Positions 1-63,041 of a DNA stretch of 64,000 nucleotides are shown one piece after another. The position numbers were made by a program, and so were the translations under genes. Numbering within the stretch: position 1 is the first letter of the stretch; every line of letters starts with the position of its first letter. The notes below the pieces were generated by a model. The model ran no database searches and was not told where the DNA came from. It saw only the letters and a program-made list of their open reading frames with translations. Source of the stretch: Anaerolineae bacterium (GTDB taxonomy: Bacteria; Chloroflexota; Anaerolineae; B4-G1; DUEL01); NCBI GenBank assembly GCA_036172315.1, contig JASFBC010000093.1, forward strand, positions 27,108 to 91,107, read 5' to 3'.

Positions 1-17
1 ACAAGGGGGCAAAGCCC

Positions 18-440: not shown

Positions 441-441
441 C

Positions 442-1294: not shown

Positions 1295-1349
1295 GCACGA
1301 AATTGCGTACTTTCGTCCTCTGTGTATTTCGTGGAACGAGAGGTGAAGA

Positions 1350-1673: not shown

Positions 1674-1725
1674 CCTCGTTTATCGGCTCGCTTACTAACT
1701 TGCACATTCGCAAACTTTTGATCAG

Positions 1726-2274: not shown

Positions 2275-2326
2275 GGGGAGCCGCAATGCGGGCCTTCCCG
2301 TGCCCCTATCTGAAGGGTTCGGTGGA

Positions 2327-2560: not shown

Positions 2561-2649
2561 GCGCTGAGTCAGGCAATTGAGATTCACGTAATGGCGGTAT
2601 GACCTCATCCAGTTAGCCGGACATCCTCTTTGTCGGAGCAGATACAGGT

Positions 2650-2832
2650 ATGACAAGAAAATGCATGCCCTATCGGGAAATGCGACGGAAGTATAAGGTG
2701 CGGGTGCGAAACCGCTGCAAGCGCTGTGGCCGACCGCGCGGCTATTACCGCCGCTTCGGCCTCTGCCGCATCTGCCTGCGGGAGTTGGCCCTGGAGGGGC
2801 TGATCCCCGGGCTGACCAAGTCCAGTTGGTGA
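2650..2832 (+). CDS. rpsZ: 30S ribosomal protein S14 type Z (zinc-binding)
   Basis: A 60-aa protein with CKRCGRP...CRIC zinc motif in the canonical position between L5 and S8. Confidence 0.93.
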
Positions 2833-2845
2833 GGGTGACGGACCG

Positions 2846-3259
2846 ATGACGGTGACAGATCCGATTGCCGATATGTTGACCCGCATGCGCAATGCGATTG
2901 CGGTGGGGCACCCCACCGTGGAGATGCCCTCTTCCAAAATGAAAGTCGCCATCGCTCGCATCCTGAAGGAAGAGGGGTATATTGAGGACTACCGGGTGGT
3001 GGAGTCGCCGGAGCAGCCTCGCTATCGCCTGGTGATCCGCCTGAAGTATATCGGGGAACAGCGGAAGCGGCGGTCCGTCATCCAGGGACTGCGACGGGTC
3101 AGCAAGCCGGGCCGCCGGATTTACACCCGCGCGTCCGAGATTCCCTGGGTGAAAAGCGGTATGGGCATCGCCATCCTCTCCACTCCCAAGGGAATCCTCA
3201 CCGGCGAACAGGCCCGACGGCTGCGGGTGGGCGGCGAGGTTATCTGCTACGTGTGGTAG
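2846..3259 (+). CDS. rpsH: 30S ribosomal protein S8
   Basis: Carries the S8 N-terminal motif [13 protein letters not shown]. Confidence 0.95.
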
Positions 3260-3269
3260 GGAGGACGGG

Positions 3270-3839
3270 ATGTCGCGAATTGGTCGGATGCCGATCCCTT
3301 TGCCCCCCGGGGTGAAGGTGGAAATTCAGGGTAGCCAGGTCACCGTAAGCGGCCCGAAAGGGACGCTGACGCGTACGTTTGACCCGGCGATGCAAATTAT
3401 TAAAGAAGATAATACCCTGCGGGTCTACCGGCCCACGGATGCCCGGCACCATCGGGCGCTGCATGGGCTGACCCGTGCCCTGCTGGCGAATATGGTGGAA
3501 GGGGTCTCCCAGGGGTTCCAGAAGCAACTGGAGATTCGCGGCGTTGGGTACCGCGCCGAGCGCCAGCCCGACGGGACGCTGGTTATGCACCTGGGATTCC
3601 CTCACCCGGTCCGTGTCCGCCCGCCGGAGGGCATCACTTTTGATGTAGACCCCAAAATGGGCATTATTACCATCCGGGGCGCGGATAAGGAGACAGTGGG
3701 ACGGGTTGCCGCCGAAATCCGCGCCTGGCGCCCGGCTGACCCGTATCTGGGGAAAGGGCTCCGCTACCTGGGCGAGCAGATTCGCCAGAAGGCCGGGAAG
3801 GCCGGCAAGGGTAAGGGCAAAGGCAAAGGGAAGAAGTAA
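3270..3839 (+). CDS. rplF: 50S ribosomal protein L6 with Lys/Gly-rich C-terminal tail
   Basis: L6 fold motifs are present (SRIGRMPIPLP, VKVEIQG); an extra tail KAGKAGKGKGKGKGKK follows. Confidence 0.93.
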   Translation: MSRIGRMPIPLPPGVKVEIQGSQVTVSGPKGTLTRTFDPAMQIIKEDNTLRVYRPTDARHHRALHGLTRALLANMVEGVSQGFQKQLEIRGVGYRAERQPDGTLVMHLGFPHPVRVRPPEGITFDVDPKMGIITIRGADKETVGRVAAEIRAWRPADPYLGKGLRYLGEQIRQKAGKAGKGKGKGKGKK

Positions 3840-3857
3840 GGATCAGGGAGCAAGATT

Positions 3858-4223
3858 ATGGTGGAAAAAGATCGCCGGTTGGGACGACTGCGCCGACGCA
3901 AGCATGTGCGCAAGAAGGTGTTCGGCACGCCCGAGCGCCCGCGTCTGAACGTTTTTCGCAGTCTGCGGCATATCTACGCCCAGGTGATTGATGATACAGT
4001 GGGACATACACTGGTCTCCGCCTCTACCCTGGACCCGGAAGTCCGGGAGCAGATTGCAGGATTGAAGAAGAGGGAGCAGGCCCGGGTGGTGGGGAAGGTC
4101 CTGGCGGCCCGTGCCCTGGCCCGGGGGGTCACCAAAGTGGCCTTTGACCGGGCGGGATACAAATACCACGGTCGGGTGAAAGCGCTGGCCGATGCCGCCC
4201 GCGAGGGTGGGTTGGATTTCTAA
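3858..4223 (+). CDS. rplR: 50S ribosomal protein L18
   Basis: Basic N-terminus [19 protein letters not shown] with spc-operon context. Confidence 0.93.
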
Positions 4224-4258
4224 GCGGAACCCAGAGCAAGGAATCGGGAGGCAAGCGA

Positions 4259-4795
4259 ATGGACCTGGATCAGGAATTTGAACTGGAGCCAACGGCGCCG
4301 GTAGAATTGGACGAGCGGGTCGTGGAGATCAAGCGGGTTGCCAAAGTCATCAAGGGCGGGCGCCGGTTCGCCTTTCGGGTGACGGCCGTGGTCGGCGATC
4401 GCAACGGCCGCGTCGGCATCGGCGTGGGCAAAGCGCGCGCCGTCCCGGACGCCATCCGCAAGGCCACGGAGCGAGCCCGGGCTTCTATGATCCCGATCCC
4501 CCTGGTCGGGCGGACCATCCCGCACGATGCGATGGGCGAATGCGGCGGCGCCCGGGTGCTGATCAAGCCCGCCTCACCGGGTACTGGCGTCATCGCGGGC
4601 GGCGGCGTGCGCGCCGTGTTGGAAGCAGCGGGTATCCACGACGTGCTGACCAAGTCTATGGGCAGTTCCAGCATGCTCAACGTGGTGAAGGCGACCATGG
4701 AGGCCCTGCAGCAACTGCGCTCCCACGAGGAACTGGCGCGGGAGCGGGGCCTGCCGGAGACCCGGGTGATGCCGTTCTGGATGCGGGGACGGTAG
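4259..4795 (+). CDS. rpsE: 30S ribosomal protein S5
   Basis: S5 signature [31 protein letters not shown]. Confidence 0.95.
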
Positions 4796-4817
4796 ATTGG
4801 CAGACACGGGAGAGGCA

Positions 4818-5012
4818 ATGGAAAAGCGGAAGATTCTCCGTATCACCCTGGTTCGCAGCCCAATCGGGTATTCCAGAGACCAGAAGGCGACCGTCCGGGC
4901 GCTGGGTCTGCGCCGTCTCCATCAGACGGTGGAGAAGGCCGACACGCCGACCATCCGGGGGATGGTGGCTAAGGTCCAGCATATGTTGAAGGTGGAAGAG
5001 GTTGAGGGATGA
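4818..5012 (+). CDS. rpmD: 50S ribosomal protein L30
   Basis: L30 motif [13 protein letters not shown]...[13 protein letters not shown] 4818 has RBS GGGAGAGG; the ORF track begins at an in-frame TTG at 4797. Confidence 0.88.
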
Positions 5013-5488
5013 AACTGCACGATTTGCAGCCGGCTGAGGGTTCTAAGAAGCGCCGCAAACGGAAGGGCATCGGCATCGCGGCCGGTCAGGGGAAGACCGG
5101 CGGGCGCGGGACAAAGGGGCAGAAGGCCCGCAGTGGAGGAAGCATCCCACCGTACTTTGAGGGCGGGCAGTTGCCGCTGGTCCGCAAACTCCCCTTCGCG
5201 CGGGGCGTCGGTTTCCGGAATCCCTGGCGGGCCCGTTTCACACCGGTCAACGTGGACCGGCTGGCCCAGTTCGCGCCGGGGAGCGTGGTGACTCCAGAGG
5301 AACTGGCGGATGCCGGCCTGATTCGGGACCCCGATGAGTGGGTGGTCATCCTGGGGCGCGGGGAGTTGGACATCCCGCTGACGGTAAAGGCCCATCGTTT
5401 CTCCGCCAGCGCGCGGGCCAAGATTGAGGCCGCTGGCGGCACTGTGGAAGAGTTGCCCTGGGAGCGGGGCGGCTACCGGACGCGGTAA
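5009..5488 (+). CDS. rplO: 50S ribosomal protein L15
   Basis: Gly/Arg-rich N-terminal region [16 protein letters not shown] is typical L15; the start overlaps the rpmD stop. Confidence 0.93.
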
Positions 5489-5514
5489 GCGATCCGCGAT
5501 AAGCGAGGTAAGCG

Positions 5515-6834
5515 ATGATCCAGGCCGTACGTGATGCCCTGAGGCTTCCCGACCTGAGACGGCGGCTGTTCTACACGCTGCTGATTCTGGTTATCTTTCG
5601 CGTAGCCTCTCACGTGCCGGTGCCGGGCATTGACCGGGAGGCTCTGCGCAGCCTGACCGGTGGGGCGGCCCAACTGGTCAACATTCTGGACCTGCTCTCT
5701 GGCGGCGCAGTAGCGGAATACTCGGTGCTGGCAAACGGGGTCTATCCGTACATCAACGCATCCATCATTATCCAGTTGCTGGTTCCGGTCATCCCGGCGC
5801 TGAAACGGCTGGCAGAGGAGGAAGGGGAAGCCGGACGACGGAAACTGAACCAGTGGACGTACTACCTGACCATTCCACTGGGGATGTTGCAGGCCTGGGG
5901 TCAGGCCCAGTTGTTCAACAGCGCGGCCGCGCGCCCGATCCTGCCCAACTTCGGCTTCCATCGGCCGGAGTTCATCCTGCCTACCATCTCGGTCCTGGTG
6001 GCCATGACGGCGGGCACGATGTTTGCCATCTGGCTGGGTGAGTTGATCTCCGAACAGGGCATTGGTAACGGTCTTTCGCTCATCATCTTCGGCGGCATCG
6101 TGGCCCGGACGCCGGCCAACGTGGCGCGGATTTACACTACGGATGGTCTCCTGGGCATTCTCTTTTTCCTGATCATCACCGCGCTGGTGGTCTTCGTTAT
6201 CGTCTATGTCCAGGAGGGAGAGCGGCGCATTCCGGTGCAGTACGGCAAGCGGGTACGGGGCCGGCGGATGTACGGCGGCGGCAGCACCTACATCCCGCTG
6301 CGGGTCAATATGGCCGGGATGATCCCGCTCATCTTTGCCCAGTCTCTGCTCACTCTGCCTGCGGTCATTGCCCAGTTCTTCGCCAATTCGTCCAACGTGA
6401 ACGTGGCGAGGGTGGCAGCGGATATTATGAACTTCTTCAGCGGGCACACAGTGGAGTGGTATACCACTCTCTTCTACGCGGTGCTCTACTTTGCTGCTGT
6501 CGTCGGCTTCACATACTTCTACACCTTCGTTCTGGTAGAGCAGCAGAACTTGCCGGAGAATCTGCAGAAATACGGCGGGTTCATCCCGGGTATCCGTCCC
6601 GGCAAGCAGACGGCAGACTACATTAATGGGATCTACAAGCGCATCACTCTGTTCGGGGCTCTGTTCCTGGGCGGTGTCGCCGTCCTGCCCTTTATTGTTC
6701 AGTTGGTGATGAACACCCGGGTGCTGCTCATCACCTCTGCGGGACTGCTCATCGTTGTCGGCGTCGTGGTGGATACGATGCGGCAACTGGAGGCCCAGTT
6801 GCTGATGCGGCATTATGAGGGATTCATCCGATGA
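5515..6834 (+). CDS. secY: Preprotein translocase subunit SecY
   Basis: A 439-aa polytopic membrane protein with SecY motifs (LRRRLFYTL, GGIVARTP) at the conserved position after rplO. Confidence 0.95.
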   Translation: MIQAVRDALRLPDLRRRLFYTLLILVIFRVASHVPVPGIDREALRSLTGGAAQLVNILDLLSGGAVAEYSVLANGVYPYINASIIIQLLVPVIPALKRLAEEEGEAGRRKLNQWTYYLTIPLGMLQAWGQAQLFNSAAARPILPNFGFHRPEFILPTISVLVAMTAGTMFAIWLGELISEQGIGNGLSLIIFGGIVARTPANVARIYTTDGLLGILFFLIITALVVFVIVYVQEGERRIPVQYGKRVRGRRMYGGGSTYIPLRVNMAGMIPLIFAQSLLTLPAVIAQFFANSSNVNVARVAADIMNFFSGHTVEWYTTLFYAVLYFAAVVGFTYFYTFVLVEQQNLPENLQKYGGFIPGIRPGKQTADYINGIYKRITLFGALFLGGVAVLPFIVQLVMNTRVLLITSAGLLIVVGVVVDTMRQLEAQLLMRHYEGFIR

Positions 6835-6861
6835 ACACCATGCCGATTTCCCACGAAGAAA

Positions 6862-6902
6862 GTAACTATTCAGCCCGATGGAGATCGCCCTCCTGGCGCC
6901 GA
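6862..6902. repeat. Partial copy (left end only) of a MITE-like intergenic repeat
   Basis: GTAACTATTCAGCCCGATGGAGATCGCCCTCCTGGCGCCGA is near-identical to the left ends of the copies at 7743 and 53873. Confidence 0.75.
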
Positions 6903-7011
6903 GATGAACCCTTTGTGGAAGAAGCGGATTGACCGGGAAGCCATCTATGTAGGGGCAAGAACAGGTCTAGAACATTCTGCAACATGTTCTGGAAGTAACA
7001 CGGGTGATCGT

Positions 7012-7707
7012 ATGGGCTGTCGGATTGTCCTTTTGGGTATGCCCGGCGCGGGCAAGGGGACTCAGGCGGAGCAACTGGCTCAGGCGCTGGGAGTCCCCCA
7101 TGTCGCCAGCGGTGACCTGTTTCGGGAACACCTGGATAAGGGGACAGAACTGGGCCGCCAGGCGCGGGCCTATATGGAGCGAGGTGACCTGGTGCCCGAT
7201 GAGGTGACCATCGGCATGGTCGCCGAGCGGATCGCCCGCCCGGATTGCATCGGCGGCTTCATCCTAGATGGCTTCCCGCGCACCGTTGCCCAGGCGGAGG
7301 CGCTGGAGCGCCTCCTGCGAGGAAACGGGACCGCGCTGGATATGGTAGCCTTTATCCGGGTGCGGGAGGAGGTCGCGTTGGCCCGTCTGGCGGGCCGCTG
7401 GACCTGTCGGAATTGTGGGGCAGTCTATCACACCCTGTTTAACCCACCCAGGCAGGCCGGGATGTGCGATGCCTGCGGCGGCGAACTCTACCAGCGCCCC
7501 GATGAGACGGAGGAGGCTCACCGCCGCCGCCTGAAGGTCTATCAGGAACAGACGGCGCCGCTGGTGGACTACTACCGTCAATCTGGCCTGCTGGTGGAGA
7601 TAAACGGCGAGCAGTCCATTGAAGATGTCCAGGCCGACCTGCGGGCAGCCGTGGAGAGCGCCTGCGGCCGACTCGGCGGAGAAAGCCCACAAAGCGCTTC
7701 CCGCTGA
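7012..7707 (+). CDS. adk: Adenylate kinase with zinc-binding lid
   Basis: P-loop GMPGAGKGTQ and lid cysteines CRNCG...CDACGG. The ORF-track start at 6904 adds a non-homologous extension that overlaps the repeat, so ATG 7012 is preferred. Confidence 0.9.
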   Translation: MGCRIVLLGMPGAGKGTQAEQLAQALGVPHVASGDLFREHLDKGTELGRQARAYMERGDLVPDEVTIGMVAERIARPDCIGGFILDGFPRTVAQAEALERLLRGNGTALDMVAFIRVREEVALARLAGRWTCRNCGAVYHTLFNPPRQAGMCDACGGELYQRPDETEEAHRRRLKVYQEQTAPLVDYYRQSGLLVEINGEQSIEDVQADLRAAVESACGRLGGESPQSASR

Positions 7708-7742
7708 GCCGCTACCCAGACCGGTCTACGGGTTTCCTTAAC

Positions 7743-7893
7743 CACTATTCAGCCCGACGAAGACCGCCTTCTATGCGCCGATGGGGGGCAGGGGCAATGG
7801 AGGGGCAACCCCTGCAGTTGCCCTACAAGGACGGCGCAGGCCGTCCTCCGGCTGAAGGCCCGGAGAGGCCGACTTTCCGTCAGCGCTGAGTTT
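7743..7893. repeat. MITE-like intergenic repeat, copy B
   Basis: Shares ACTATTCAGCCCGA...GGACGGCGCAGGCCGTCC...GACTTTCCGTCAGCG blocks with the copy at 53873-54045; internal palindromes are present. Confidence 0.75.
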
Positions 7894-7903
7894 CCTTCTT
7901 CCC

Positions 7904-8665
7904 TTGATCCAACTGAAGTCATCAGGCGAAATTGGAAAAATGCGTCAGGCCGGGCGGATTGTCGCCGAGGTCCTGCTGCGGATGCGGGAATGGGTGAGGC
8001 CCGGCGTCACCACGGCGGAGTTGAACGAGAAGGCAGAGGACCTGATCCGACGCCGGGGCGGCATCCCGTCCTTTAAAGGGTATCCGCCAGGGAGCCCGCA
8101 TCCCTTTCCGGCCGCAATCTGTGCGTCCGTTAACGAGGAACTGGTCCACGGGATTCCTGGCCCCCGGGTGCTGAAAGAAGGGGACATTATCAGTATAGAC
8201 GTCGGGGCCATCTACGACGGTTATCACGGTGATGCGGGCATCACCCTGCCGGTGGGGGAAGTGAGCCCGGAGGCCCGGCGGCTGTTGGAGGTGACGGAGG
8301 AAGCCCTCTACCTCGGGATTGCCCATGCCCGGGCCGGGAACCGTGTCGGCGACATCTCCGCCGCCATTCAGACCTTTGTGGAGTCCCAGGGCTACAACGT
8401 GGTGCGGGAGTACACCGGGCACGGGATCGGTCGGCAGATGCATGAGCCGCCGCAGATTCCCAACCATGGGGAGCCGGGACGGGGGCCGCTATTGTGGTCG
8501 GGGATGACCGTCGCCATAGAGACGATGGTCCTGGCAGGCGACCATCGGGTCCGGACCCTGCCCGACCACTGGACGGTCGTCTCCGTGGATGGCAAACTGA
8601 CGGCCTACTTTGAACACACTGTCCTGATCCGGGACGGAGAGGCGGAGATATTGACGCGGCTGTAG
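7904..8665 (+). CDS. map: Methionine aminopeptidase type I
   Basis: MAP N-terminus ...IKSSGEIGKMRQAGRI and metal-ligand context (DVGA..DGYHGD...HGIG...E). Confidence 0.93.
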   Translation: MIQLKSSGEIGKMRQAGRIVAEVLLRMREWVRPGVTTAELNEKAEDLIRRRGGIPSFKGYPPGSPHPFPAAICASVNEELVHGIPGPRVLKEGDIISIDVGAIYDGYHGDAGITLPVGEVSPEARRLLEVTEEALYLGIAHARAGNRVGDISAAIQTFVESQGYNVVREYTGHGIGRQMHEPPQIPNHGEPGRGPLLWSGMTVAIETMVLAGDHRVRTLPDHWTVVSVDGKLTAYFEHTVLIRDGEAEILTRL

Positions 8666-8753
8666 GTGAAGTTATCCGGGTTTGAGCCGGGGAGCCCTTC
8701 AGGCGGCTATAGCATATGCCGCCGAGGTCGTCAGTGAGTAAGAGGAGGATAGA

Positions 8754-8867
8754 GTGAAAGTTTCACCTTCGGTCAAACGGCGCTGTCCCAAATGCAAAAT
8801 CATCCGTCGTAAAGGGGTGATTCGGGTCATCTGCGAGAACCCGAAGCACAAACAGCGACAGGGCTAA
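8754..8867 (+). CDS. rpmJ: 50S ribosomal protein L36
   Basis: Translates to [37 protein letters not shown] with a GTG start and RBS AGGAGGA 6 nt upstream. It is absent from the ORF track because it is shorter than the track cutoff. No infA lies between map and rpmJ. Confidence 0.92.
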
Positions 8868-8898
8868 TTCACGCTTCACGCATTCTATCGGAGGAGGT

Positions 8899-9288
8899 AT
8901 GGCTCGTATTGCCGGTGTAGACCTGCCCAGAGATAAACGGGTGGAGATCGGCCTGACCTATATCTACGGCATCGGGCGCAGTCTGAGCAATCAGATTCTG
9001 CGCAAGGCCGGCGTGAACCCGAATAAGCGGGTGAAAGACCTCAGCGAGGCCGAGGTGGCCCGTCTGCGCGAGATCATTGATCGGGAGTATAAGGTGGAGG
9101 GCGACCTGCGGCGTGAGGTGCAGATGAATATCAAGCGCCTGATAGAGATCGGGTGCTATCGTGGATTGCGCCATCGGATGAACTTGCCGGTGCGCGGTCA
9201 GCGCACGCGGACCAATGCGCGCACCAAGCGGGGGCCGCGCAAGACCGTTCCCGGTCGCGGCCGCCGCCGGGGCGCCAAGAAGAAGTAA
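8899..9288 (+). CDS. rpsM: 30S ribosomal protein S13
   Basis: N-terminus [26 protein letters not shown]. Confidence 0.95.
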
Positions 9289-9322
9289 TCCGCAAATCTG
9301 CCATCTGTTCACGGAGTTGACT

Positions 9323-9718
9323 ATGTCTCGTGCTCAAAGACGTCGCAGAGTTACCCAGCGGGTGCGCCGCGCGACCCCGCGCGGGGTGGCCCACATTCAC
9401 GCCAGTTTCAACAACACCATCATCACGATCACCGACCCTCAGGGGAATGTCATTAACTGGGCCAGCGCGGGACTGGTGGGCTTTAAGGGCTCCCGTAAGA
9501 GCACGCCCTTCGCGGCCCGCCAGGCCGCCCAGCGCGCGGCCAAAGACGCCCTGGATAACGGGGTGACCGAGGTGGATGTGCTGGTCAAGGGGCCGGGCCC
9601 GGGGCGGGAGGCAGCCATCCGCTCCCTCCAGGCTTCGGGGCTCAAAATCCGCTCCATCACCGATGTGACGCCCATCCCGCACAACGGTTGCCGGCCCCCT
9701 AAGAAGCGCAGAGTGTAA
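9323..9718 (+). CDS. rpsK: 30S ribosomal protein S11
   Basis: S11 motif [18 protein letters not shown]; start ATG 9323 has RBS ACGGAG. The ORF-track 5' extension is not homologous. Confidence 0.93.
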
Positions 9719-9743
9719 TGATGAATTAGAGTAAGGAGTGAGT

Positions 9744-10382
9744 ATGGGCAGATACACAGGCCCGGTTTGTCGGTTGTGTCGCCGCGAAGGACAAAAGTTA
9801 TTTTTGAAAGGCGCGCGCTGCACATCGCCCAAGTGTGCTCTGGAGCGCCGGGATCACCCGCCCGGACAGCACGGGCAGATGGCCCGTTTCCGACGGGGAC
9901 AACCCACGGATTACTTCCGCCAGTTGCGGGAAAAACAGAAAGTTAAGCGGGTCTACGGCATTCTGGAGCGGCAGTTCCGCCGCTACTTCCGGGAGGCGTT
10001 GCGGATGCCCGGCCTGACCGGCGAAAATCTACTCATCCTGCTGGAGCGCCGTCTGGATAACGTAGTCTACCGGCTGGGCTTTGCCGACTCGCGTGCCCAG
10101 GCCCGCCAACTGGTTCAGCATGGCCACTTCACCGTCAACGGCCGACGGGTCACTATCCCGTCCTACCTGGTCTGGCCCGGTGACCGGATCGCGGTGCGGG
10201 AAGGAAGCCGCAGGCGACCATATTTCCAGGAACGCGCGGAGATGCTGGGCGAGATGAGAGTTCCCGATTGGCTCTCTCTGGACGCGGCGGACCTTTCCGC
10301 CCGGGTTCTGGGAATGCCCAGGCGGGAGCATGTGGACATCCCGATCAACGAGCAACTGGTCGTGGAGTACTACTCTCGGTAG
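9744..10382 (+). CDS. rpsD: 30S ribosomal protein S4 (zinc-finger type)
   Basis: N-terminus [16 protein letters not shown]...CTSPKCA (C4). RBS AAGGAG lies 5 nt before ATG 9744. Confidence 0.93.
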
Positions 10383-11384
10383 GTGGCGATGGCTGCACAG
10401 AGGGAACTCCGATTTGCCGCACCGGTTTTGCCGAAAATTGAAAAAGAGGTGCTGACCCAGCAGTACGGCCGGTTCGTCATCGGCCCGCTGGAGAGTGGCT
10501 ACGGGATCACGCTGGGGAACGGACTGCGGCGGGTCCTGCTCTCCTCCCTTCCCGGAGCGGCCGTCACCTCTGTCCGTATCTACGATGTCCCTCATGAATT
10601 CGCGACCATCCCCCATGTGCGGGAGGACGTGATGCAAATCCTTCTTCAGGTGAAGCAATTGCGCCTGAAGATGGATGGCGACGACCCGATGCGAATGGCT
10701 CTCTCCGTTCGGGGGAATGGCGTGGTGACCGCTGGTGACATCCAGGCACCGCCAGAGATAGAGATTCTCAACCCGGACCTCTATCTCTTCACCACCGACT
10801 CCCCCGAGGCCGTGGTGGAGATGGAGTTCACCGTGGAACGGGGACGGGGTTACTCTCCTGCCGAAGAGCGGGAGCGCCGATCCCTGGGTGAACTTCCAGT
10901 AGATGCTCTGTTCAGTCCTGTCCGGCGGGTGGCGTTCAACGTGGAGCGGGCACGGGTCGCCCAGCGGACCAACTACGACCGGCTGAATATGGAAATCTGG
11001 ACCGACGGCCGCATTGGCCCGCTGGAGGCTCTCAAGGAGGCGGCCCGAATTCTGGTCACCCACTTTCGCCTCATCGCCGGGATTACGGAGGAGCCGGAGT
11101 TAGTGGGCGAAGAGGAGAGAGGGATCCCGGCCCGAATCTACGAGGTCCCGATAGAAACTCTGGGGCTGACCGCGCGCGTCTACAACGCCCTGAAACGGTC
11201 GGGAATCTCCCGGGTCGGAGAGGTCCTGGAAGTGCTGAGCCGGGGCGATGAGGCGGTCCGGACCATCCGCAACTTTGGCGATAAGTCTATGGCAGAATTA
11301 ATGGAAAAACTGGGCGCAGCCGGGTACTTGACTTATCTGCCCCGGCCACCCGTGAGGGAATCGGGAGAACTGGGAGAATCATAA
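10383..11384 (+). CDS. rpoA: DNA-directed RNA polymerase alpha subunit
   Basis: Alpha N-terminal and C-terminal domain motifs (ITLGNGLRRVLLSS; C-terminal ...RNFGDKSMAE). Start is GTG 10383 or ATG 10389. Confidence 0.93.
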   Translation: MAMAAQRELRFAAPVLPKIEKEVLTQQYGRFVIGPLESGYGITLGNGLRRVLLSSLPGAAVTSVRIYDVPHEFATIPHVREDVMQILLQVKQLRLKMDGDDPMRMALSVRGNGVVTAGDIQAPPEIEILNPDLYLFTTDSPEAVVEMEFTVERGRGYSPAEERERRSLGELPVDALFSPVRRVAFNVERARVAQRTNYDRLNMEIWTDGRIGPLEALKEAARILVTHFRLIAGITEEPELVGEEERGIPARIYEVPIETLGLTARVYNALKRSGISRVGEVLEVLSRGDEAVRTIRNFGDKSMAELMEKLGAAGYLTYLPRPPVRESGELGES

Positions 11385-11426
11385 GAGGAATAAGAATCGG
11401 GAGAATTAGCGGTTGGGAGGAGGAGG

Positions 11427-11828
11427 ATGCGACATCGGGTTGCAGGAAAGAAACTGAATCGTTCCAGCGGCCATCGCCGGGCCCTGTTTCGGAATCTGGT
11501 TTCGGCGTTAATCTACCACGAGCGGATAGAAACAACGGAAGCGAAGGCGGAGGCCATTCGCGGGCATGCGGAGAAACTCATTACTCTGGCCAAGCGAGGG
11601 CTGGCAGCGAATGACCCGGCCTACGGCGTCTATGCCCGCCGTCTGGCCGCAGCCCGCATAAATCGCTGGGTGGTCTCCCCCGAGGGGGAGCGGGTGGACC
11701 TGGTCAAGAAACTCTTTGAGGAGATCGCGCCGCGCTACCAGAACCGACCCGGCGGATATACCCGCATCATCAAACTGGGCCCGCGCAAGGGCGACGCGGC
11801 CCCTATGGTGGTGCTGGAACTGGTGTAA
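11427..11828 (+). CDS. rplQ: 50S ribosomal protein L17
   Basis: N-terminus [24 protein letters not shown]. Confidence 0.95.
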
Positions 11829-11858
11829 CGGATTGCGGATTGCCGTGCGATATAGAAT

Positions 11859-12623
11859 TTGTCCATGCGCGTTCGGGCGGTCGTGGCCTATGATGGCACT
11901 CACTACCAGGGCTTCCAGCGACAGACCAGCGGGCCCACCGTCCAGGAGGCCCTGGAGCGGGCGCTGGAACGGGTGACGGGAGAGCCAGTCACCATTCTGG
12001 CCGCCGGCCGCACCGATACGGGAGTTCACGCTGAAGGGCAAGTCATCGCCTTTGACACGGAGTGGAGGCATTCGCTGACGGCGCTCCTGCGGGCGCTGAA
12101 CGCGGTGCTCCCGCCCGATGTCGCGGTGCGGGAGGTGGCTCCGGCCCCCCCGGACTTTCACCCCCGCTACGATGCGATCAGCCGGTACTACCGGTACACC
12201 ATTTACAACCATCCGGTTCGTTCGCCGCTGGCCCGCTGGACCAGTTTCCACATCGCATGGCCGCTGGACGTGGAGGCAATGCAGGCAGCGGCGGCCCTGC
12301 TGGTCGGTGAGCATGATTTCGCCGCCTTCGGCACCCCACCGAAGAGGGAGAACACCATCCGGCGGGTGCTGCGGGCCGGGTGGCACGCCGACCCGCCCTG
12401 GCTGTACTTTGACATAGAGGCCAACGGATTCCTGTACCGGATGGTCCGCATTCTGGTCGGCACGATGATTCGGGTTGGCCTGGGACGGCTATCGGTGGAG
12501 GCGTTCCGCGAGATTTTTGTCTCCGGCGATCGCCGCCGGGCCGGACCGGCGGTACCCCCGCACGGTCTCTGCCTGATGGCGGTGAGGTATCCACAGGGAG
12601 ATCTCAGAATCAGCGAATCATAG
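11859..12623 (+). CDS. truA: tRNA pseudouridine(38-40) synthase
   Basis: Carries AYDGTHYQGFQRQ and the catalytic block GRTDTGVHA. Confidence 0.9.
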   Translation: MSMRVRAVVAYDGTHYQGFQRQTSGPTVQEALERALERVTGEPVTILAAGRTDTGVHAEGQVIAFDTEWRHSLTALLRALNAVLPPDVAVREVAPAPPDFHPRYDAISRYYRYTIYNHPVRSPLARWTSFHIAWPLDVEAMQAAAALLVGEHDFAAFGTPPKRENTIRRVLRAGWHADPPWLYFDIEANGFLYRMVRILVGTMIRVGLGRLSVEAFREIFVSGDRRRAGPAVPPHGLCLMAVRYPQGDLRISES

Positions 12624-12632
12624 AAGCAAGGA

Positions 12633-13070
12633 GTGATGAGTGTGAAGACGTACGTCACCCAACCCGATGAGGTGAAACGGGAGTGGTTCGTTGTGGACGC
12701 CAGCGGGAAGACGCTGGGGCGTCTGGCAACGGAGGTGGCCCGTATTCTGCGCGGGAAACATAAGCCTATTTACTCCCCGATGATAGATGTAGGGGATTAC
12801 GTCATCGTAGTCAACGCCGAGAAGGTGCGGGTTACGGGCCGCAAACTGACCCAGAAGTTCTACTACCGCCATTCCGGCTACCCGGGCGGCTTCAAACAGA
12901 TTAGCCTGCGGGATATGCTGGCTCGTCACCCGACGCGCGTCATTGAGTACGCCGTTTGGGGAATGCTCCCCAAGAACGCTCTGGGGCGGCGGATGTTTAA
13001 GAAACTGAAGGTATATGCCGGGCCAGACCACCCTCATCAGGCCCAGAACCCGAAACCGCTGGAGTTGTAG
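12633..13070 (+). CDS. rplM: 50S ribosomal protein L13
   Basis: L13 motifs [19 protein letters not shown] and [11 protein letters not shown]. Confidence 0.95.
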
Positions 13071-13089
13071 GAGGGTGAGGAGAGAACCG

Positions 13090-13491
13090 ATGGCAGAACA
13101 GCAACAGTATTATGAAGGCGTGGGACGTCGCAAGGAAGCCACCGCGCGGGTGCGGCTCTACCCCGAGGGCGACGGGAAATTTGTGGTCAATGACCGGCCC
13201 CTTCAGGAGTACTTCGTCCGCAAGATAGATGTGATGCGCCTGATGGAGCCGCTGAAGGTCACCGGGATGGATGGCCGCTTCAATATCTCCGTCCAGGTGA
13301 AGGGGGGCGGGATCAGTGGTCAGGCCGGGGCGGTGCGGCTGGGCCTGGCGCGGGCGCTGCTCCAGGTGGACCCCCAACTGCGGCCGCTTCTGCGCCAGAA
13401 GGGGCTGTTGACCTGCGACGCGCGGGTGAAAGAGCGCAAGAAGCCGGGCCTCAAGCGCGCCCGTAAGGCCCCGCAGTATACGAAGCGGTAG
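13090..13491 (+). CDS. rpsI: 30S ribosomal protein S9
   Basis: YYEGVGRRKEATARV...C-terminal KARKAPQYTKR; RBS GGAGGGTGAGGAG lies upstream of ATG 13090. Confidence 0.93.
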   Translation: MAEQQQYYEGVGRRKEATARVRLYPEGDGKFVVNDRPLQEYFVRKIDVMRLMEPLKVTGMDGRFNISVQVKGGGISGQAGAVRLGLARALLQVDPQLRPLLRQKGLLTCDARVKERKKPGLKRARKAPQYTKR

Positions 13492-13516
13492 CGCGAAAAA
13501 CGCAAAGGGCCGGGGA

Positions 13517-13566
13517 AAAGACCCTCCCGCAGATTCTCAACCTGCGGGAGGGTCTTTGCGTTTGCG
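13517..13566 (+). terminator. Rho-independent terminator ending the r-protein operon
   Basis: AAAGACCCTCCCGCAG-N-CTGCGGGAGGGTCTTTGCGTTTGCG: a perfect ~14-bp stem followed by a T-rich tail. Confidence 0.8.
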
Positions 13567-13700
13567 GATGCCGGCCTTCAGCGCCTACGACTACGACTGC
13601 CTCGTTGCCCCTCCCTCTGCCCCCCTGGTAGCGGCGAAGCCGCCGGGGATGAGGTGAGGACTTCCCTGTCCCAACGGATGTCCCAATCTCGGGCGAGGGC

Positions 13701-13729
13701 TTGACACCCCCTCCGGTTTATGCTATCAT
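13701..13729 (+). promoter_or_regulatory. Sigma-70-like promoter for the MBL/epimerase operon
   Basis: TTGACA-N17-TATCAT with an extended -10 TGC upstream. Confidence 0.6.
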
Positions 13730-13811
13730 CCTTCTACCTCCCCAATGGGGGGCTGGAGGCAGCAGCACTACCCCACCCCTATCTGCAAGCAGCGAATAAA
13801 GGAAGTGACCT

Positions 13812-14693
13812 ATGCTCCAGGAACGGGTCTCCGCCGACATCTACCTCTTCACCAGCGACCTTTATACCCAGGTCACCGCCGGTGTCATCGTGACCCCGGC
13901 AGGAGCCGTCCTGGTGGACACCCTCCCGTTTCCTATAGAGACCCAGGCCATTCTCCAGTTTCTATCTCGCCGGGTGCCGGCTGGCCTCCGGTACATCATC
14001 TTCACCCACTACCACGCGGACCACATTTACGGTGCCCATCTGTTCCCCGATGTCCCCGTCATCGCTCACGCGCGATGCCGGGAACATCTGCTCCTCTCGG
14101 GGAAGGAAGGGCTAAAAGCCGCGCGCGCGGAGGCGCCAGACCTCCTGGAGAATGTGGTCATCCGTCTGCCCGATATCACGCTGGATAGCGGTGAGATGAT
14201 CCTCTCCTTAGGCGGCAAGACCCTGCGCATCTTTGAGACCCCCGGCCACTCCGATGATGGTCTCTCCATCTACGTGGAAGAAGACCTGGTGCTCTTCGCG
14301 GGCGACGCGATGATGCCTATCCCCACAATTGTGGACGGCGACCCGGAGGTGCTGAAGCAGTCGCTTCGGAAAATCCAGGCCATAGAACCCGATAGTATCG
14401 TCCAGGGACACGGAGAGGTGATTCTGCGGGGAGAAGTCAAGGATGCGCTGCGGACTAACATCGCGTATCTGGAGACCATTCAGCGGATCGCGAGTGAGGC
14501 GGTGACCAACGAACGGCGTCGGGCCACACTTCTCAAAACCGACGTGGAGAAGTGCGGGGTTCCTCGCGTGGCTCTGAATGGAGAAGCCCCTCGGCTCCAC
14601 GCGGCCAACCTGCGGACGCTCTATAACCGCCTGGCCCGCTCTGCAGGCAAGGAGGAATGGGCGACCTCTCAGAAATCGGGGAGAAAAGGATGA
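13812..14693 (+). CDS. MBL-fold metallo-hydrolase
   Basis: THYHADHIYG (HxHxDH) zinc-binding motif; 293 aa. Confidence 0.85.
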   Translation: MLQERVSADIYLFTSDLYTQVTAGVIVTPAGAVLVDTLPFPIETQAILQFLSRRVPAGLRYIIFTHYHADHIYGAHLFPDVPVIAHARCREHLLLSGKEGLKAARAEAPDLLENVVIRLPDITLDSGEMILSLGGKTLRIFETPGHSDDGLSIYVEEDLVLFAGDAMMPIPTIVDGDPEVLKQSLRKIQAIEPDSIVQGHGEVILRGEVKDALRTNIAYLETIQRIASEAVTNERRRATLLKTDVEKCGVPRVALNGEAPRLHAANLRTLYNRLARSAGKEEWATSQKSGRKG

Positions 14694-15649
14694 ACGTCGC
14701 GATTACCGGGGCAGCAGGATATGTGGGGCAACAATTGATGGCCCGATTGGGGGCCGATTCTGAGGTGGAACAAATCTTCGGCCTGGACATTCGGCTTCCT
14801 GAAATGTCGCTTCCCTCCGGCGCGATGTTTCTTCAAATGGACATTCGCGACCCCACACTGGGAGATACTCTCCGGCGCTGCGGAGTAGAGAGCCTAGTCC
14901 ACACTGCGTTTATCCTCTTCCCCCATCCTCGCCGACTGGCCCTGATGGAACAGGTCAATGTAGGGGGGACCATCAATGTCCTGAGGGCCTGCCGGGAAGC
15001 GAGAATCTGTCGCTTGATCATCCTTTCCAGCATCACGGTCTACGGTGCCTGGCCCGATAACCCAATCCCGCTAACCGAAGAACACCCTCTCCGCCCCAAT
15101 CCTAACTACCCCTATGGTGTGCACAAAGGTCTGGTGGAACGACATTGCCGTGAGTTTTCAGAGGAATACCCTCAGGTCGCATGCATCATATTGCGTCCCC
15201 CGGGAATTTTCGGCCCTCATGCCCGGGGTCCCCTGGCGGACTTTCTTCGGCGCTCCAGCGCGGTCATCGTCGACGGAGGATATGCCCCCGGCCAGTTTGT
15301 CCATGAAGACGACCTTGTGGACCTGATCGGAAAATGCCTGCGGAGCGATGTCCGGGGGGCTTTTAATGCAACCCCCAATGACTGGCTTCCCTGGCGGGAA
15401 ATCTGGGGCAGCGTCGGGAAGAAACTTCTGAACTTTCCCTGGCCAGCCGCGCGTCTGATCTTTGGCCTGCTCTGGCGAATGGAGCGGCTGGGCTACGTCA
15501 CCCATCCCGGTCAGGTCAACCTGACCCGGTTTCCCCTTGTGGCCAGCAACGAGAAGGCCCGCCGACAACTGGGCTGGCAACCAGCATATACAACTCTCCA
15601 GACCGTTCAATCTTTCCTTGCAAGAGGGAACGATGAATCGTCGTACTGA
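14690..15649 (+). CDS. NAD-dependent epimerase/dehydratase (SDR extended family)
   Basis: Rossmann motif ITGAAGYVGQQL at the N-terminus. ATG 14690 overlaps the upstream stop (ATGA) and has RBS GGGAGAAAAGGA. Confidence 0.85.
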   Translation: MNVAITGAAGYVGQQLMARLGADSEVEQIFGLDIRLPEMSLPSGAMFLQMDIRDPTLGDTLRRCGVESLVHTAFILFPHPRRLALMEQVNVGGTINVLRACREARICRLIILSSITVYGAWPDNPIPLTEEHPLRPNPNYPYGVHKGLVERHCREFSEEYPQVACIILRPPGIFGPHARGPLADFLRRSSAVIVDGGYAPGQFVHEDDLVDLIGKCLRSDVRGAFNATPNDWLPWREIWGSVGKKLLNFPWPAARLIFGLLWRMERLGYVTHPGQVNLTRFPLVASNEKARRQLGWQPAYTTLQTVQSFLARGNDESSY

Positions 15650-16286
15650 CATTTTGGTCGGCATCTCTATGGCACTGGTTATCGTCGGAGTTTCTCTCAC
15701 CGGGCTCCTTTTTCGCTGGCCATGGATGTTTTCCCTTATTGCCTGGCTGATGGTAGCCCTCTACCTGGCTTATATCGGGATAACCCGAAACCCTCTGTTC
15801 CTGCGGCTTCTGACCTTTGCCCTGGCCTGCAATCTCCCTCAACTGCTGACCGATTTTTACCATGCCAGAGTTGTCCACACACTGGTCTATGACGATTTCC
15901 TGTTCAGAGTGCTGGATACCCCTGATTATATCATCGCCGGATGGGGATTCGCCTTCCTGCAACTGGGGTATCTCTTCCTCCGGTTACGCCCCCGGCTGGG
16001 CACCGGCCTCACCACTGCGTTGATCACAGCAGGAGGGACAGTCGTTCACTCCTGGTATGAAGAGATGGCCTATCAGTCCCATACCTGGCGATACCTGGAC
16101 GCCCGGATGATCGGTCACGTGAGCCTGTGGGTCATCTTTTCCTTTGTCCTCATTATCGCCACGATTTGTCTGCTCCTGACCTGGCTGGAGCGACGAGAAC
16201 ATCCGGCATGGTGGGTGGGCGGGGGGATCCTGAACGGCATCGGGATATTCGCATACTCAGCTCTTGGGGTGGCACTCCTGCGATAG
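15633..16286 (+). CDS. Integral membrane protein of unknown function
   Basis: At least six predicted TM helices; ATG 15633 has RBS AGAGGGA; 17-bp overlap with the epimerase gene suggests an operon. Confidence 0.7.
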   Translation: MNRRTDILVGISMALVIVGVSLTGLLFRWPWMFSLIAWLMVALYLAYIGITRNPLFLRLLTFALACNLPQLLTDFYHARVVHTLVYDDFLFRVLDTPDYIIAGWGFAFLQLGYLFLRLRPRLGTGLTTALITAGGTVVHSWYEEMAYQSHTWRYLDARMIGHVSLWVIFSFVLIIATICLLLTWLERREHPAWWVGGGILNGIGIFAYSALGVALLR

Positions 16287-16526
16287 TCGTATCACGCTCT
16301 TCTTTGGCCGGAGAGTAAGAGATAAACAGATGGCTGAATCTTAAAAAGTTGTACCGGTAGCGCATGGAGTACTCATTGCCGGGAAACGTGGCGCAAGATA
16401 AATCGCCACCAAGCCTCATCTTCCTCGAGAATTGTAGATCGTCACAATACTCTTCGCGTCTTTCCCGGCAGATAGCCGCAATTATCTGAGAGGTTATTTT
16501 ACATCCTTCATAGTCATCACAGGGTC

Positions 16527-16868
16527 TGTGGATTTGTGGATAACCGGGCAAGGGGAATCAGCAACCCCTAATTCTCGGGAAGTGGAGGTGGGTGAGGTGT
16601 ATTAGTGGGGATAGATGAAGCGGGTATCGCCTTCGGAAGTTGGGGATAGATATGGGAAAACCGGAAAGAGCCCATCTGGGGCTTGTATCTGGAAGGGTGA
16701 ACTCTCGCCAAAGAAGCGCGGTATCTGGGCGGGATTATCCACAGGCGGCCCGGGTTATCCACAGAAACGGGCAGGTTATCCACACCCGGAACGAGGCGCG
16801 GGGTGGGAAAGAGGACATATATGGGAGATGGGGACAATTGCCCTGCCAGAAATGGGGGGTGTGGATGA
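16527..16868. promoter_or_regulatory. DnaA-box cluster in a 650-bp non-coding, locally AT-richer region (candidate oriC or DnaA-regulated region)
   Basis: Perfect TTATCCACA at 16735-16743, 16755-16763 and 16776-16784 in direct orientation with 20-21-bp phasing. Perfect complement TGTGGATAA at 16536-16544, abutting TGTGGATTT at 16527-16535. TGTGGATGA at 16860-16868. An AT-rich stretch lies at 16321-16350. Confidence 0.6.
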
Positions 16869-16941
16869 GTGGAAGGAGTTGTGATTTCCAGTAAGCAGAG
16901 TGGGAGTAGCGTTCACCCATAGAATTCCCAGGAGGTATCCT

Positions 16942-18669
16942 ATGGAACTGATCCGATTCCTTCCTGTAGCCCGGGGGGACGAACCGGCTGAACTGGTGCT
17001 CCGAAACGGACGGGTCATCAATGTGTATACGGCCGAGATCATAGAGGCCGATATCGCGATCGCGGACGGCCTCATTGTCGGCGTGGGGAGAGGATACGAA
17101 GGCCGCCAGGAGATAGATCTGAGGGGCCGGTATCTTTGCCCCGGCCTGATAGACGCCCACGTCCATATAGAGTCTTCTATGGTGACCCCCTACCAGTTCG
17201 CCCGTGCCGTTGTCCCTCGGGGAACAACGACCGTCGTCTGCGACCCGCATGAAATCGCTAATGTGGCCGGAACGGCCGGGATCCGCTATATGCTGGACGC
17301 CTCGGAAGGGTTGCCGTTGACCGTCTACGTGAATCTTCCCTCCTGTGTACCGGCCACGACAATGGGAACCGCCGGCGCCGAATTGGGCGCAGCCGACCTG
17401 TTGCCTCTGGCAAATCTCCCCCGCGTTCTGGGCCTGGCCGAGATGATGAACGTCCCGGGTCTGGTTCTGGGATTCCCCGACGTGCTGGCAAAGGTGGAAG
17501 CATTTCGGGATCGGGTGATAGACGGTCACGCCCCGGGCATCAGCGGGAAGTGGCTCCAGGCGTATGTGGGCGCCGGGCCGGGTTCGGACCATGAATGTAC
17601 CACTGCCGCCGAGATGATGGAGAAACTCCGCCTGGGGATGCGCGTCTTCATCCGGGAATCCACGGCGGCGAAAAACCTGCGCGCCCTGATACCGGCCATC
17701 ACCCCCCAGAACAGCCGTCGGTGCGCCTTCTGCACCGATGATCGCCACCCGGCTGACTTGCTGGATGAAGGGCATCTGGATCACCTCATTCGACTGGCAG
17801 TTTCTGAAGGGCTGGACCCGGTTACGGCGATCCAGATGGCCACCCTGAACGCGGCGGAATGGTTTCGCCTGCGTGACCGGGGGGCCATCGCCCCCGGCCT
17901 GCGGGCCGACCTGGTGGTCTTCTCGGACCTGAGGAATTTCCGACCGGAGATGGTCTTCTCCGCCGGGCATCTGGTGGCTCAGGCCGGAGAGCCGGTTAGC
18001 CGCTGGGAGGAGCCTCCGGCGGACGATTCCCCGGTTCGGGATACGGTGCGGGTGGAATGGGAGCGGGTCTCTCTGCGGATAGGGGCTCCGAACTCCGGCG
18101 CCCGGAGCGTTCGGGTACGGGTCATCGGCGTCATCCCCGATCAGGTCCTGACAGAACACCGGATTGAGGAACTCCCTGTACGGGACGGAGAGGTGGTGGC
18201 CGCTCCGGAGCGGGACATCCTGAAACTGGCCGTCATAGAGCGACATCAAAGGACCGGCAATGTGGGGCTTGGGTTTGTGCAAGGGCTGGGACTTCGCCAG
18301 GGAGCCCTGGCGGGGAGCGTGGGGCACGATGCCCACAACCTCATCGTTGCCGGTTGCGATGATGTTTCTATGATGACCGCGGCGCGCACGGTGGCCCGGA
18401 TGGGTGGCGGCCTGGCCGTCGCGGTGGGAGAGCAGGTACTGGCAACAGTGCCGTTACCGGTCGCCGGTCTGATGTCGGATCAGCCGGTAGAGATGGTCCG
18501 TTTCCAGATGGACGGCCTGACCCAGGCAGCGCGGTCCCTGGGGACTTCCCTGCCAGACCCGTTGATGACGCTGAGTTTCCTGCCCCTGGAGGTCATCCCG
18601 GCGCTGAAGTTGACGGATCAGGGGCTGGTGGACGTGGAGCAGTTTGCCTTTGTATCCCTTTTTGCTTGA
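16942..18669 (+). CDS. ade: Adenine deaminase
   Basis: Amidohydrolase metal motif GLIDAHVHIESS and overall AdeC-like length. RBS AGGAGG lies 6 nt before ATG 16942. Confidence 0.88.
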   Translation: MELIRFLPVARGDEPAELVLRNGRVINVYTAEIIEADIAIADGLIVGVGRGYEGRQEIDLRGRYLCPGLIDAHVHIESSMVTPYQFARAVVPRGTTTVVCDPHEIANVAGTAGIRYMLDASEGLPLTVYVNLPSCVPATTMGTAGAELGAADLLPLANLPRVLGLAEMMNVPGLVLGFPDVLAKVEAFRDRVIDGHAPGISGKWLQAYVGAGPGSDHECTTAAEMMEKLRLGMRVFIRESTAAKNLRALIPAITPQNSRRCAFCTDDRHPADLLDEGHLDHLIRLAVSEGLDPVTAIQMATLNAAEWFRLRDRGAIAPGLRADLVVFSDLRNFRPEMVFSAGHLVAQAGEPVSRWEEPPADDSPVRDTVRVEWERVSLRIGAPNSGARSVRVRVIGVIPDQVLTEHRIEELPVRDGEVVAAPERDILKLAVIERHQRTGNVGLGFVQGLGLRQGALAGSVGHDAHNLIVAGCDDVSMMTAARTVARMGGGLAVAVGEQVLATVPLPVAGLMSDQPVEMVRFQMDGLTQAARSLGTSLPDPLMTLSFLPLEVIPALKLTDQGLVDVEQFAFVSLFA

Positions 18670-45067: not shown

Positions 45068-45083
45068 CGGGGCAAGTACCCTT

Positions 45084-62984: not shown

Positions 62985-63041
62985 CGTTTTACTCCCCTCA
63001 ATCAATGTGCCAAGGCGCTTGGGGAAGTGCCTGGTATGTGC

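Follow-up and report, generated by a model that had tools for sequence, protein, structure and literature searches.

The 64,000-nucleotide stretch analyzed here in full (positions 27,108 to 91,107 of contig JASFBC010000093.1; hereafter the window) comes from an uncultured Thermoflexales bacterium (Chloroflexota, Anaerolineae), and its positions 16479-16885 probably contain the replication origin of that organism, a predicted oriC that is not linked to dnaA. An earlier reading of the sequence (the original prediction) had proposed either such an origin or a DnaA-titrating or DnaA-regulated site upstream of the adenine deaminase gene ade. We favor the origin, still as a prediction, because DnaA boxes are both dense and conserved in this module, an unwinding element stands in the expected place, and the geometry is that of a box, a spacer, and DnaA-trios; because origins that lie beside dnaA in the same class share this architecture; and because the module has been kept through local inversions and a switch in AT skew of the right polarity lies at or near it.

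A cluster of DnaA boxes in a long noncoding gap

Perfect matches to the DnaA box TTATCCACA occur four times on the two strands of the window, and all of them fall within 250 bp (16535-16784). Dinucleotide-preserving shuffles yielded a mean of 0.07 perfect boxes in 64 kb and never reached four, so the density is indeed beyond chance, as had been claimed. A motif search bore out the three directly repeated boxes, on the forward strand at 16735-16743, 16755-16763, and 16776-16784, with start-to-start distances of 20 and 21 bp. The fourth box is on the reverse strand (read as TGTGGATAA on the forward strand); it is real, although its span is 16535-16543 and not the start at 16536 first given for it. 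Sites with one or two mismatches join the four perfect boxes within 350 bp, and the window as a whole holds 12 sites with at most one mismatch where 4.9 are expected. Both imperfect boxes noticed at the outset, one with two mismatches beside the inverted box and one with a single mismatch at 16860, were recovered, as were the repeats reported for the gap, with TGGGGATAGAT present at 16606 and again at 16641. The gap that contains all of these sites is 655 bp long. Its features, and the genes on either side, are as follows.

16287-16941: noncoding gap, 655 bp, between the DUF6989 membrane-protein gene and ade
16287-16478: variable left part of the gap, outside the conserved module; does not align among nine orthologous loci
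16479-16885: proposed oriC core, the whole conserved module of about 400 bp, delimited by the alignment of nine loci
16479-16518, forward strand: candidate DNA unwinding element, AT-rich, with a T-rich top strand
16508-16522, forward strand: DnaA-trio-like element of the left unit, with 3-nt periodicity, TCA TAG TCA TCA CAG
16523-16526, forward strand: 4-nt spacer GGTC from trios to boxes, in the place of the GC cluster (GGGC/GGGGC) of other modules
16527-16535, reverse strand: weak DnaA box TGTGGATTT, two mismatches, sharing one base with the perfect box
16535-16543, reverse strand: left perfect DnaA box
16565-16610: inverted repeat CCCCTAAT ... ATTAGTGGGG in the spacer, in conserved alignment columns
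16606-16614 and 16641-16649, reverse strand: two TGGGGATAG sites, two mismatches each, oriented as the left boxes
16735-16784, forward strand: triple perfect-box array with two-helical-turn phasing, oriented opposite to the left boxes
16816-16827, forward strand: CATATATGGGAG, a CCAGATATGG-like motif copy that is almost unchanged across nine orthologs
16847-16868, forward strand: right unit, a second trio-plus-box, CAG AAA TGG, GGGG, then TGTGGATGA
16860-16868, reverse strand: one-mismatch box TGTGGATGA of the right unit, found by motif search
15537-16286, forward strand: DUF6989 membrane-protein gene (Pfam), left flank, not part of the module
16942-18669, forward strand: ade, adenine deaminase (Pfam), with a ribosome-binding site and an ATG start at 16942, right flank, not part of the module

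Conservation of the module while its neighbors are rearranged

A search with the Ade protein retrieves loci from genomes of uncultured Anaerolineae and Thermoflexales, and the exact protein is encoded on a Logan contig from SRR24425660, whose end falls 95 bp left of the left-hand perfect box. At eight loci whose Ade proteins are 86-94% identical to that of the window, one inverted perfect box is followed after ~200 bp by three direct boxes (20 and 21 bp apart) upstream of ade. Across nine genomes (Ade proteins 85-94% identical), the positions of the boxes and the 20/21-bp spacing do not change, while column identity in the alignment averages 49%. The conserved core of this alignment runs roughly from 16495 to 16885. 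Assemblies of the clade include JADBJJ01, DAOTWL01, JACIWQ01, and JANXCY01. The columns of the triple array are invariant in all nine orthologs, and in most of them the first array box begins ~200 bp past the start of the left perfect box, which itself matches perfectly in six of eight orthologs; in L011 it has one mismatch. The aligned position of the weak box is looser (two mismatches in six of the eight orthologs, three in the other two). The two TGGGGATAG sites are weakly conserved, with two to five mismatches in orthologs, and are possible low-affinity DnaA sites.

What surrounds the module is much less constant. The gene for an MBL-fold protein directly precedes it in L004, L006, L007, and L030, where the DUF6989 gene is absent; among the orthologous loci compared, L003 alone shares the epimerase and DUF6989 genes with the window. 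At L011 the module, in inverted orientation and 2.7 kb away from ade, has a membrane-protein gene on one side and on the other an epimerase gene that it faces, and at L086 it has a different neighbor again, in a third context, on a contig that bears a homolog of the MBL-fold gene of the window. Relative to L004, L007, and L030, the window differs by a ~20-kb inversion (13.8-33.6 kb) that spans the module, reaching 3 kb to one side of it and 17 kb to the other. In these three relatives the genes found at 35395-36210 and 33677-35374 of the window stand directly upstream of the MBL-fold gene. The ends of the inversion were searched for repeats, and none were found. Small inversions around the module were also seen at L011 and L086. 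To the left of the module (window 14657-16478) the flank is hypervariable, as seen at L001, L002, L005, L009, and L012, and the fact that several assembly contigs break off at the module or within it suggests heterogeneity at the strain level.

These rearrangements bear on the idea that the boxes place ade under the transcriptional control of DnaA and so tie purine salvage to the replication cycle. DnaA boxes do act at the nrd or gua promoters of E. coli, in eight relatives the triple array precedes the ade start by 160-200 bp, and in other Anaerolineae-type contigs a comparable module is flanked by deoxynucleoside kinase genes, which also serve nucleotide salvage. Since the module persists at L011 and L086 while its neighbors have changed, a promoter element specific to ade is not the main explanation. 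No boxes were found near ade in L010 or in relatives whose Ade proteins are 70-79% identical; a scan of the gap for promoters and terminators gave nothing above shuffled expectation, with no sigma-70-like promoter on the ade strand; and ade control would leave unexplained an unwinding element and a trio-like element 400 bp away from the gene. We therefore regard ade control, the fallback of the original prediction, as highly improbable as the primary role of the module, though the boxes may secondarily influence the gene downstream.

A conserved noncoding block of this length might also encode a structured RNA or a small protein, or might be the origin of an integrated mobile element, with the DnaA boxes incidental; mechanically called open reading frames of 84-89 amino acids do overlap it. 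Rfam gave no family for the gap: with gathering thresholds on the whole window and E values up to 10 on the gap, the only matches were four tRNAs elsewhere and others at chance level. RNAalifold, run on the nine-locus alignment, found no covariation (covariation term +0.78), and the pairs that it predicts are mostly DnaA boxes pairing with each other; the inverted repeat CCCCTAAT/ATTAGTGGGG is also paired in the prediction, without covariation. The differences among orthologs, which include insertions and deletions, do not follow a codon-like pattern. Compared with plasmids in a distant-mode search, the gap showed no similarity, and the genes around it are of the housekeeping kind, among them neither an integrase gene nor one for a replication protein. 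The window also bears the S10/spc/alpha ribosomal-protein cluster, rpoA, nuo genes, and tRNAs and is therefore chromosomal. An RNA, a small protein, or a mobile element thus seems hardly credible as the explanation for this block.

Architecture of the module and comparison with known origins

The claim of a box array accompanied by an AT-rich unwinding element holds for the architecture but not for the place. The stretch first singled out as the most AT-rich of the window, 16321-16350, contains 21 A+T in 30, fewer than three other 30-mers (22 each) and no more than 16483-16512 (21/30), and it sits in the left part of the gap, for which relatives give no alignment. The candidate that replaces it, 16479-16518, abuts the trio-like element and the left-hand boxes and ranks second among the least stable 40-mers of the 64 kb, with a dG of -45.4 (mean -61.2, standard deviation 4.1; z = 3.8). 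All nine orthologs have a comparably unstable, T-rich 40-mer at the matching position, directly 5' of the trio-like element (z = 2.7 to 3.8); its sequence is not conserved, but its position and T-richness are. The trio-like element that follows keeps its register in the nine orthologs, with the consensus TCG TAG TCA TCG TAG, and aligns with TAG TAG TCG TAG TAG at L086 and with CAG CAG TAG at the dnaA-linked locus L140.

The closest published description is that of the basal unwinding system (BUS), known from the incC region of the B. subtilis oriC and its homologs (Richardson 2016; Pelliciari 2021, PMC8287927). Its rule specifies a box with at most two mismatches, a spacer of 0-16 nt (mode 10-13), and at least three consecutive NAN triplets, with the trios read along the strand on which 5'-TGTGGATAA-3' lies (PMC8287927). 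The module shares with these origins tandem boxes of which the distal one is better (here TGTGGATTT, with two mismatches, proximal, and a perfect TGTGGATAA distal), a short spacer, an element of 3-nt periodicity on the TGTGGATAA strand, and AT-rich DNA beyond it. Measured from the perfect box to the proximal triplet, the spacer is 12 nt, within the published mode. The module differs in having C rather than A in the middle of two or three of its five triplets (TCR), in not standing beside dnaA, and in having a second trio-plus-box unit at its far end (16847-68). It is thus BUS-like but not a member by the published rule, whose authors expected that trios without the central adenine would be found (PMC8287927). 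The right unit repeats the form of the left one (repeat family D1); in orthologs it reads CAG GAA TAG GGGG TGTGGATGG, and at L002, L004, and L030 it conforms to the BUS rule, with CAG GAA TAG/TAA, 4 nt, and TGTGGATGG.

Between the left boxes and the triple array lies a spacer of ~190 bp, which holds GTATCTGG / AGATATGGG motifs in addition to the inverted repeat. Motifs resembling CCAGATATGG / CCATATCTGG occur at 16650, 16687, 16722, and 16816, and the CCAGATATGG-like family reaches 20- to 27-fold enrichment across 16 diverse modules (L086, L089, L102, L117, L160, and others). The CATATATGGGAG/CCAGATATGG-like motif could be the site for a second origin-binding factor.

The oriC of E. coli is also unlinked to dnaA and compact (~250-400 bp), with a T-rich unwinding element beside a high-affinity box at one end; the high-affinity boxes at its two ends are oppositely oriented, with weaker sites between them. 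The module resembles it in all of these respects (unlinked, compact, a terminal T-rich unwinding element, opposed end boxes). It differs in having no GATC clusters and in the makeup of its right side, a regular array of three perfect boxes phased by two helical turns where E. coli has a mixture of R, C, and I sites.

Mapped onto the established model of DnaA-dependent origins, this anatomy suggests how the module may work, although our own observations extend to the anatomy alone and not to the steps. Domain IV of DnaA would bind the high-affinity boxes, that is, the perfect box of the left pair, with the weak one beside it, and the three opposed perfect boxes ~200 bp to the right, and the opposed groups, with weaker sites between them, would nucleate DnaA oligomers. 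From the left tandem boxes an ATP-DnaA filament would grow over the 4-nt spacer onto the trio-like element at 16508-16522 and melt the adjacent T-rich stretch at 16479-16518, the weakest one, where helicase would be loaded. As for the second trio-plus-box unit (16847-68) and the CCAGATATGG-like motifs, both are conserved and would serve as accessory sites.

Origins that are not linked to dnaA and origins of the box-spacer-trio kind are both already known, and the module adds a member in a poorly studied phylum. Our literature searches on the origins of Chloroflexi, Chloroflexota, Anaerolineae, and Thermoflexus found no study of these origins. Published predictions for cultured members of the phylum are weak: that for Anaerolinea thermophila consists of AAAAGGGGT with a 16-nt spacer, and that for Caldilinea aerophila, at ~1.05 Mb in the coordinates of its record, uses boxes with four and two mismatches (PMC8287927 supplement). 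By comparison, the module has perfect boxes, and many of its relatives have clear TAG repeats.

Comparable modules beside dnaA

We scanned metagenome contigs for the triple array with two-turn phasing and obtained at least 120 loci from many taxa. Among the matches listed, dnaA and/or dnaN is in view at ~25 loci, and a strict box-spacer-trio lies 60-320 nt upstream of the array in the right orientation at 42 of the 101 loci that have enough upstream sequence. The commonest form among the same matches is TAG TAG GGGC, an 8-nt weak box TGGGGATA, and then TGTGGATAA, which has the geometry of the left unit of the window, with the perfect box 12 nt from the proximal trio. L086 has, in the matching place, AT-rich AGTATGTATATATTTATTGATATCT, TAG TAG TCG TAG TAG, GGGC, and tandem boxes, followed by a middle perfect box, the triple array, and TATATATGG.

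At some loci the whole arrangement adjoins dnaA. L140 carries a full module directly after the gene, with box flanks like those of the window (TGTGGATAACTGGGACAAGGGG; GTTATCCACAGAAA); L208-210 have, after dnaA, three boxes, ~170 bp, TTTTCCACA, CCAC, CTA CTA CTC CTT CTA, and AT-rich DNA; and the module of L154 is also linked to dnaA. The named homologs of the DnaA proteins at such loci belong to Anaerolineae, Caldilineae, or Chloroflexi. These modules and that of the window have in common the triple array at 20-21 bp, a spacer of 130-200 bp, the box or boxes, a 4-nt spacer, trios, and AT-rich DNA, and their box flanks are similar (e.g., TGTGGATAAC.GGG.CAAGGGG and GTTATCCACAGAAA). They differ in that the array of the former abuts the 3' end of dnaA, whereas in the clade of the window the neighbors are an MBL-fold (or DUF6989) gene and ade; outside the boxes, similarity is below BLAST detection.

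In other contigs the module lies between deoxynucleoside kinase genes and spoVS, without dnaA, and at four loci of a related genus (L203, L211-213) no box was found within 10 kb of dnaA, which has almost no intergenic space. The module is therefore linked to dnaA in some members of the class and not in others. L202 and L205-207 have a bare three-box array after dnaA without clear trios, and so the array by itself is no proof of an origin.

Two side observations concern the genes next to these loci. At L089, L102, L114, L117, L141, L160, and L187, the module has a deoxynucleoside kinase gene and the gene of a ~335-aa protein without a Pfam match on one side, and spoVS and a second deoxynucleoside kinase gene on the other; nucleotide-salvage genes thus recur beside modules, deoxynucleoside kinases elsewhere and ade in the window. 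At the Anaerolineae-type loci L140, L202, L203, L205, L210, and L211, dnaN never follows dnaA.

Strand composition around the module

AT skew at fourfold sites changes at or near the module. To its right, genes on the forward strand have a skew of -0.27, and two other groups differ from them: genes on the reverse strand of the same side (-0.06; Mann-Whitney p = 0.004) and nonribosomal forward-strand genes on the left (-0.03; p = 0.0055). The best change-point lies at 16.6-20.8 kb, with a log-likelihood gain over the null of 8.0-10.5, compared with 2.6 when no switch is allowed. The T-rich strands diverge from the module, and because leading strands in Chloroflexi are rich in G+T (PMC4070872), this divergence has the polarity of an origin.

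The same pattern was seen at L008, whose left flank consists of different genes (reverse-strand genes -0.36, forward-strand genes 0.00). At 14 module loci outside the clade, AT skew averaged -0.167 in genes pointing away from the module and -0.018 in genes pointing toward it, a result matched or exceeded by only six of 500 random centers; GC skew at these loci had the expected direction but was not significant. In 14 module-free relatives centered on ade, the corresponding difference in AT skew was only -0.013, and the box-free dnaA locus L203 showed no AT-skew switch.

Weighing an origin against a noninitiating cluster

The explanation that has to be weighed most carefully is that the module is a cluster of DnaA boxes that does not initiate replication. 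It could titrate DnaA or control the DnaA cycle, as do datA and DARS in E. coli and the clusters of B. subtilis, or it could be a relic such as oriCII of P. aeruginosa, with the true origin elsewhere, possibly upstream of the ribosomal-protein cluster. Origin-like clusters that do not initiate are documented (PMC13438810, PMC2533591, PMC4585315).

Several observations weigh against an origin, and some of them favor such a cluster. The first is the distance from dnaA and dnaN. As the original prediction had noted for dnaA, the gene is absent from the surroundings; neither it nor dnaN, parAB, or gidAB occurs in the 64 kb, and searches for dnaA, dnaN, and similar genes with Pfam and tblastn (the latter with an E. 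coli DnaA query) found none in the window or in 81 first-round loci. Nor did searches for DnaA homologs recover the clade's own dnaA locus, where a second, dnaA-linked origin is possible; the candidate dnaA loci belong to other Anaerolineae genera, with tetranucleotide correlations to the window of 0.77-0.89, compared with 0.97-0.99 within the clade. A dnaA neighborhood is, at any rate, typical of origins rather than obligatory, and E. coli and others have unlinked ones.

The second is that the trios are degenerate in the clade. Each of the two units of the window contains at most two consecutive NAN triplets and thus fails the strict trio rule, and some Anaerolineae have a bare three-box array after dnaA with no recognizable trios, which shows that arrays of this kind occur without a full origin.

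Third, sliding and cumulative GC skew over the 64 kb have no V-shape and no switch at 16.5 kb. The original prediction had named GC skew as a check, with a switch located elsewhere as grounds for abandoning the origin; we ran it on the window, and the absence of a local switch does not amount to a refutation, since the replication component of fourfold-site GC skew on the right side (0.009 +/- 0.012) is indistinguishable from zero and the test has no power here. The AT-skew evidence has limits of its own: it comes from a few thousand sites in 64 kb rather than from a whole genome, and the codon usage of ribosomal-protein genes is a possible confounder, so that on the left side replication and expression are not fully separable.

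Fourth, gene orientation runs the wrong way for forks that leave the module. All genes to its left (1-16286) are on the forward strand, so that S10/spc/alpha, rpoA, truA, and rplM-rpsI (1-13.5 kb) and the three genes after them are transcribed toward it, as if forks arrived from the left; on its right, ~66% of coding bases are on the reverse strand and thus also point toward it. If forks start at the module, the ribosomal-protein cluster is replicated head-on. Converging genes also occur beside dnaA-linked modules, at L210 (5956-12500: rpoD and its neighbors) and at L202 (14472-21380: rpsB-tsf-pyrH-frr), and the head-on pattern therefore does not discriminate between the readings, although it is still unexplained. 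The objection is softened by the gene-strand bias of Chloroflexi, which is near zero at 0.51-0.53 (PMC4070872). The converging genes had also led us to consider a replication terminus, which we rejected on the DnaA boxes, the unwinding element, and the polarity of the AT skew.

Against these points stand the features by which the module departs from the known noninitiating clusters. It is, like datA, DARS1, and DARS2 of E. coli, the DnaA-box clusters (DBCs) of B. subtilis, and oriCII of P. aeruginosa, an intergenic cluster of high-affinity boxes away from dnaA. Clusters of the datA/DARS/DBC type are defined by boxes that affect the availability or the nucleotide state of DnaA and lack unwinding or trio elements, and here both elements are present and conserved. 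To our knowledge, neither datA and DARS nor the clusters of B. subtilis have a conserved unwinding element maintained in its composition, or 3-nt periodicity exactly beside the boxes. Such loci, oriCII among them, are not known to pair a trio element next to the boxes with an unwinding element, nor to be sites where strand composition switches; the module shows both features. Further, related lineages have dnaA-linked origins with the same full architecture, and a change in AT-skew polarity is seen at or near this module as it is at others of the kind. We consequently judge a noninitiating cluster to be unlikely, if still a serious contender, and an origin to be the probable identity of 16479-16885.

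Implications of the proposed origin

If the prediction is right, it locates the replication origin of an uncultured Thermoflexales lineage and supplies a recognizable origin signature for Anaerolineae-type genomes, for which published predictions are weak and GC skew is nearly flat. Such a signature would be useful in orienting and closing metagenome-assembled genomes and in growth-rate estimates that depend on read-depth ratios. It would also mean that adjacency to dnaA is an unreliable guide in this class, where some relatives have the module beside dnaA and others have a dnaA free of boxes. The conserved TCR triplets would offer a natural test of the need of DnaA for a central adenine in its single-strand binding motif, a question of strictness that the authors of the BUS rule raised themselves (PMC8287927).

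Four features of the module are unusual and, on sequence grounds, are candidates for functional roles: the TCR triplets, the second trio-plus-box unit, the CCAGATATGG-like motif, and the converging genes. They might together reflect an origin design specific to Anaerolineae lineages, in which two trio-plus-box units flank an opposed three-box array, trios tolerate TCR, a factor binds several copies of the CCAGATATGG-like motif, and flanking genes, the entire ribosomal-protein cluster included, converge on the unwinding side. We hold this further proposal to be doubtful; were it true, it would imply an arrangement of replication and transcription, or an asymmetric mode of firing, unlike that of well-studied bacteria.

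Other features of the window

A few observations elsewhere in the window are recorded for completeness. The nuoC and nuoD genes are fused into a single gene of 587 aa (37782-39545), and a ybaB-recR pair (44468-45425, reverse strand) occurs without an adjacent dnaX. On the reverse strand at 55814-62443 is the gene of a 2209-aa sensor histidine kinase with CHASE4, PAS, and seven to eight GAF domains. The gap between this gene and dtd (62547-63005, reverse strand) is occupied by 13 tandem copies of CGTGAAA (62453-62543).

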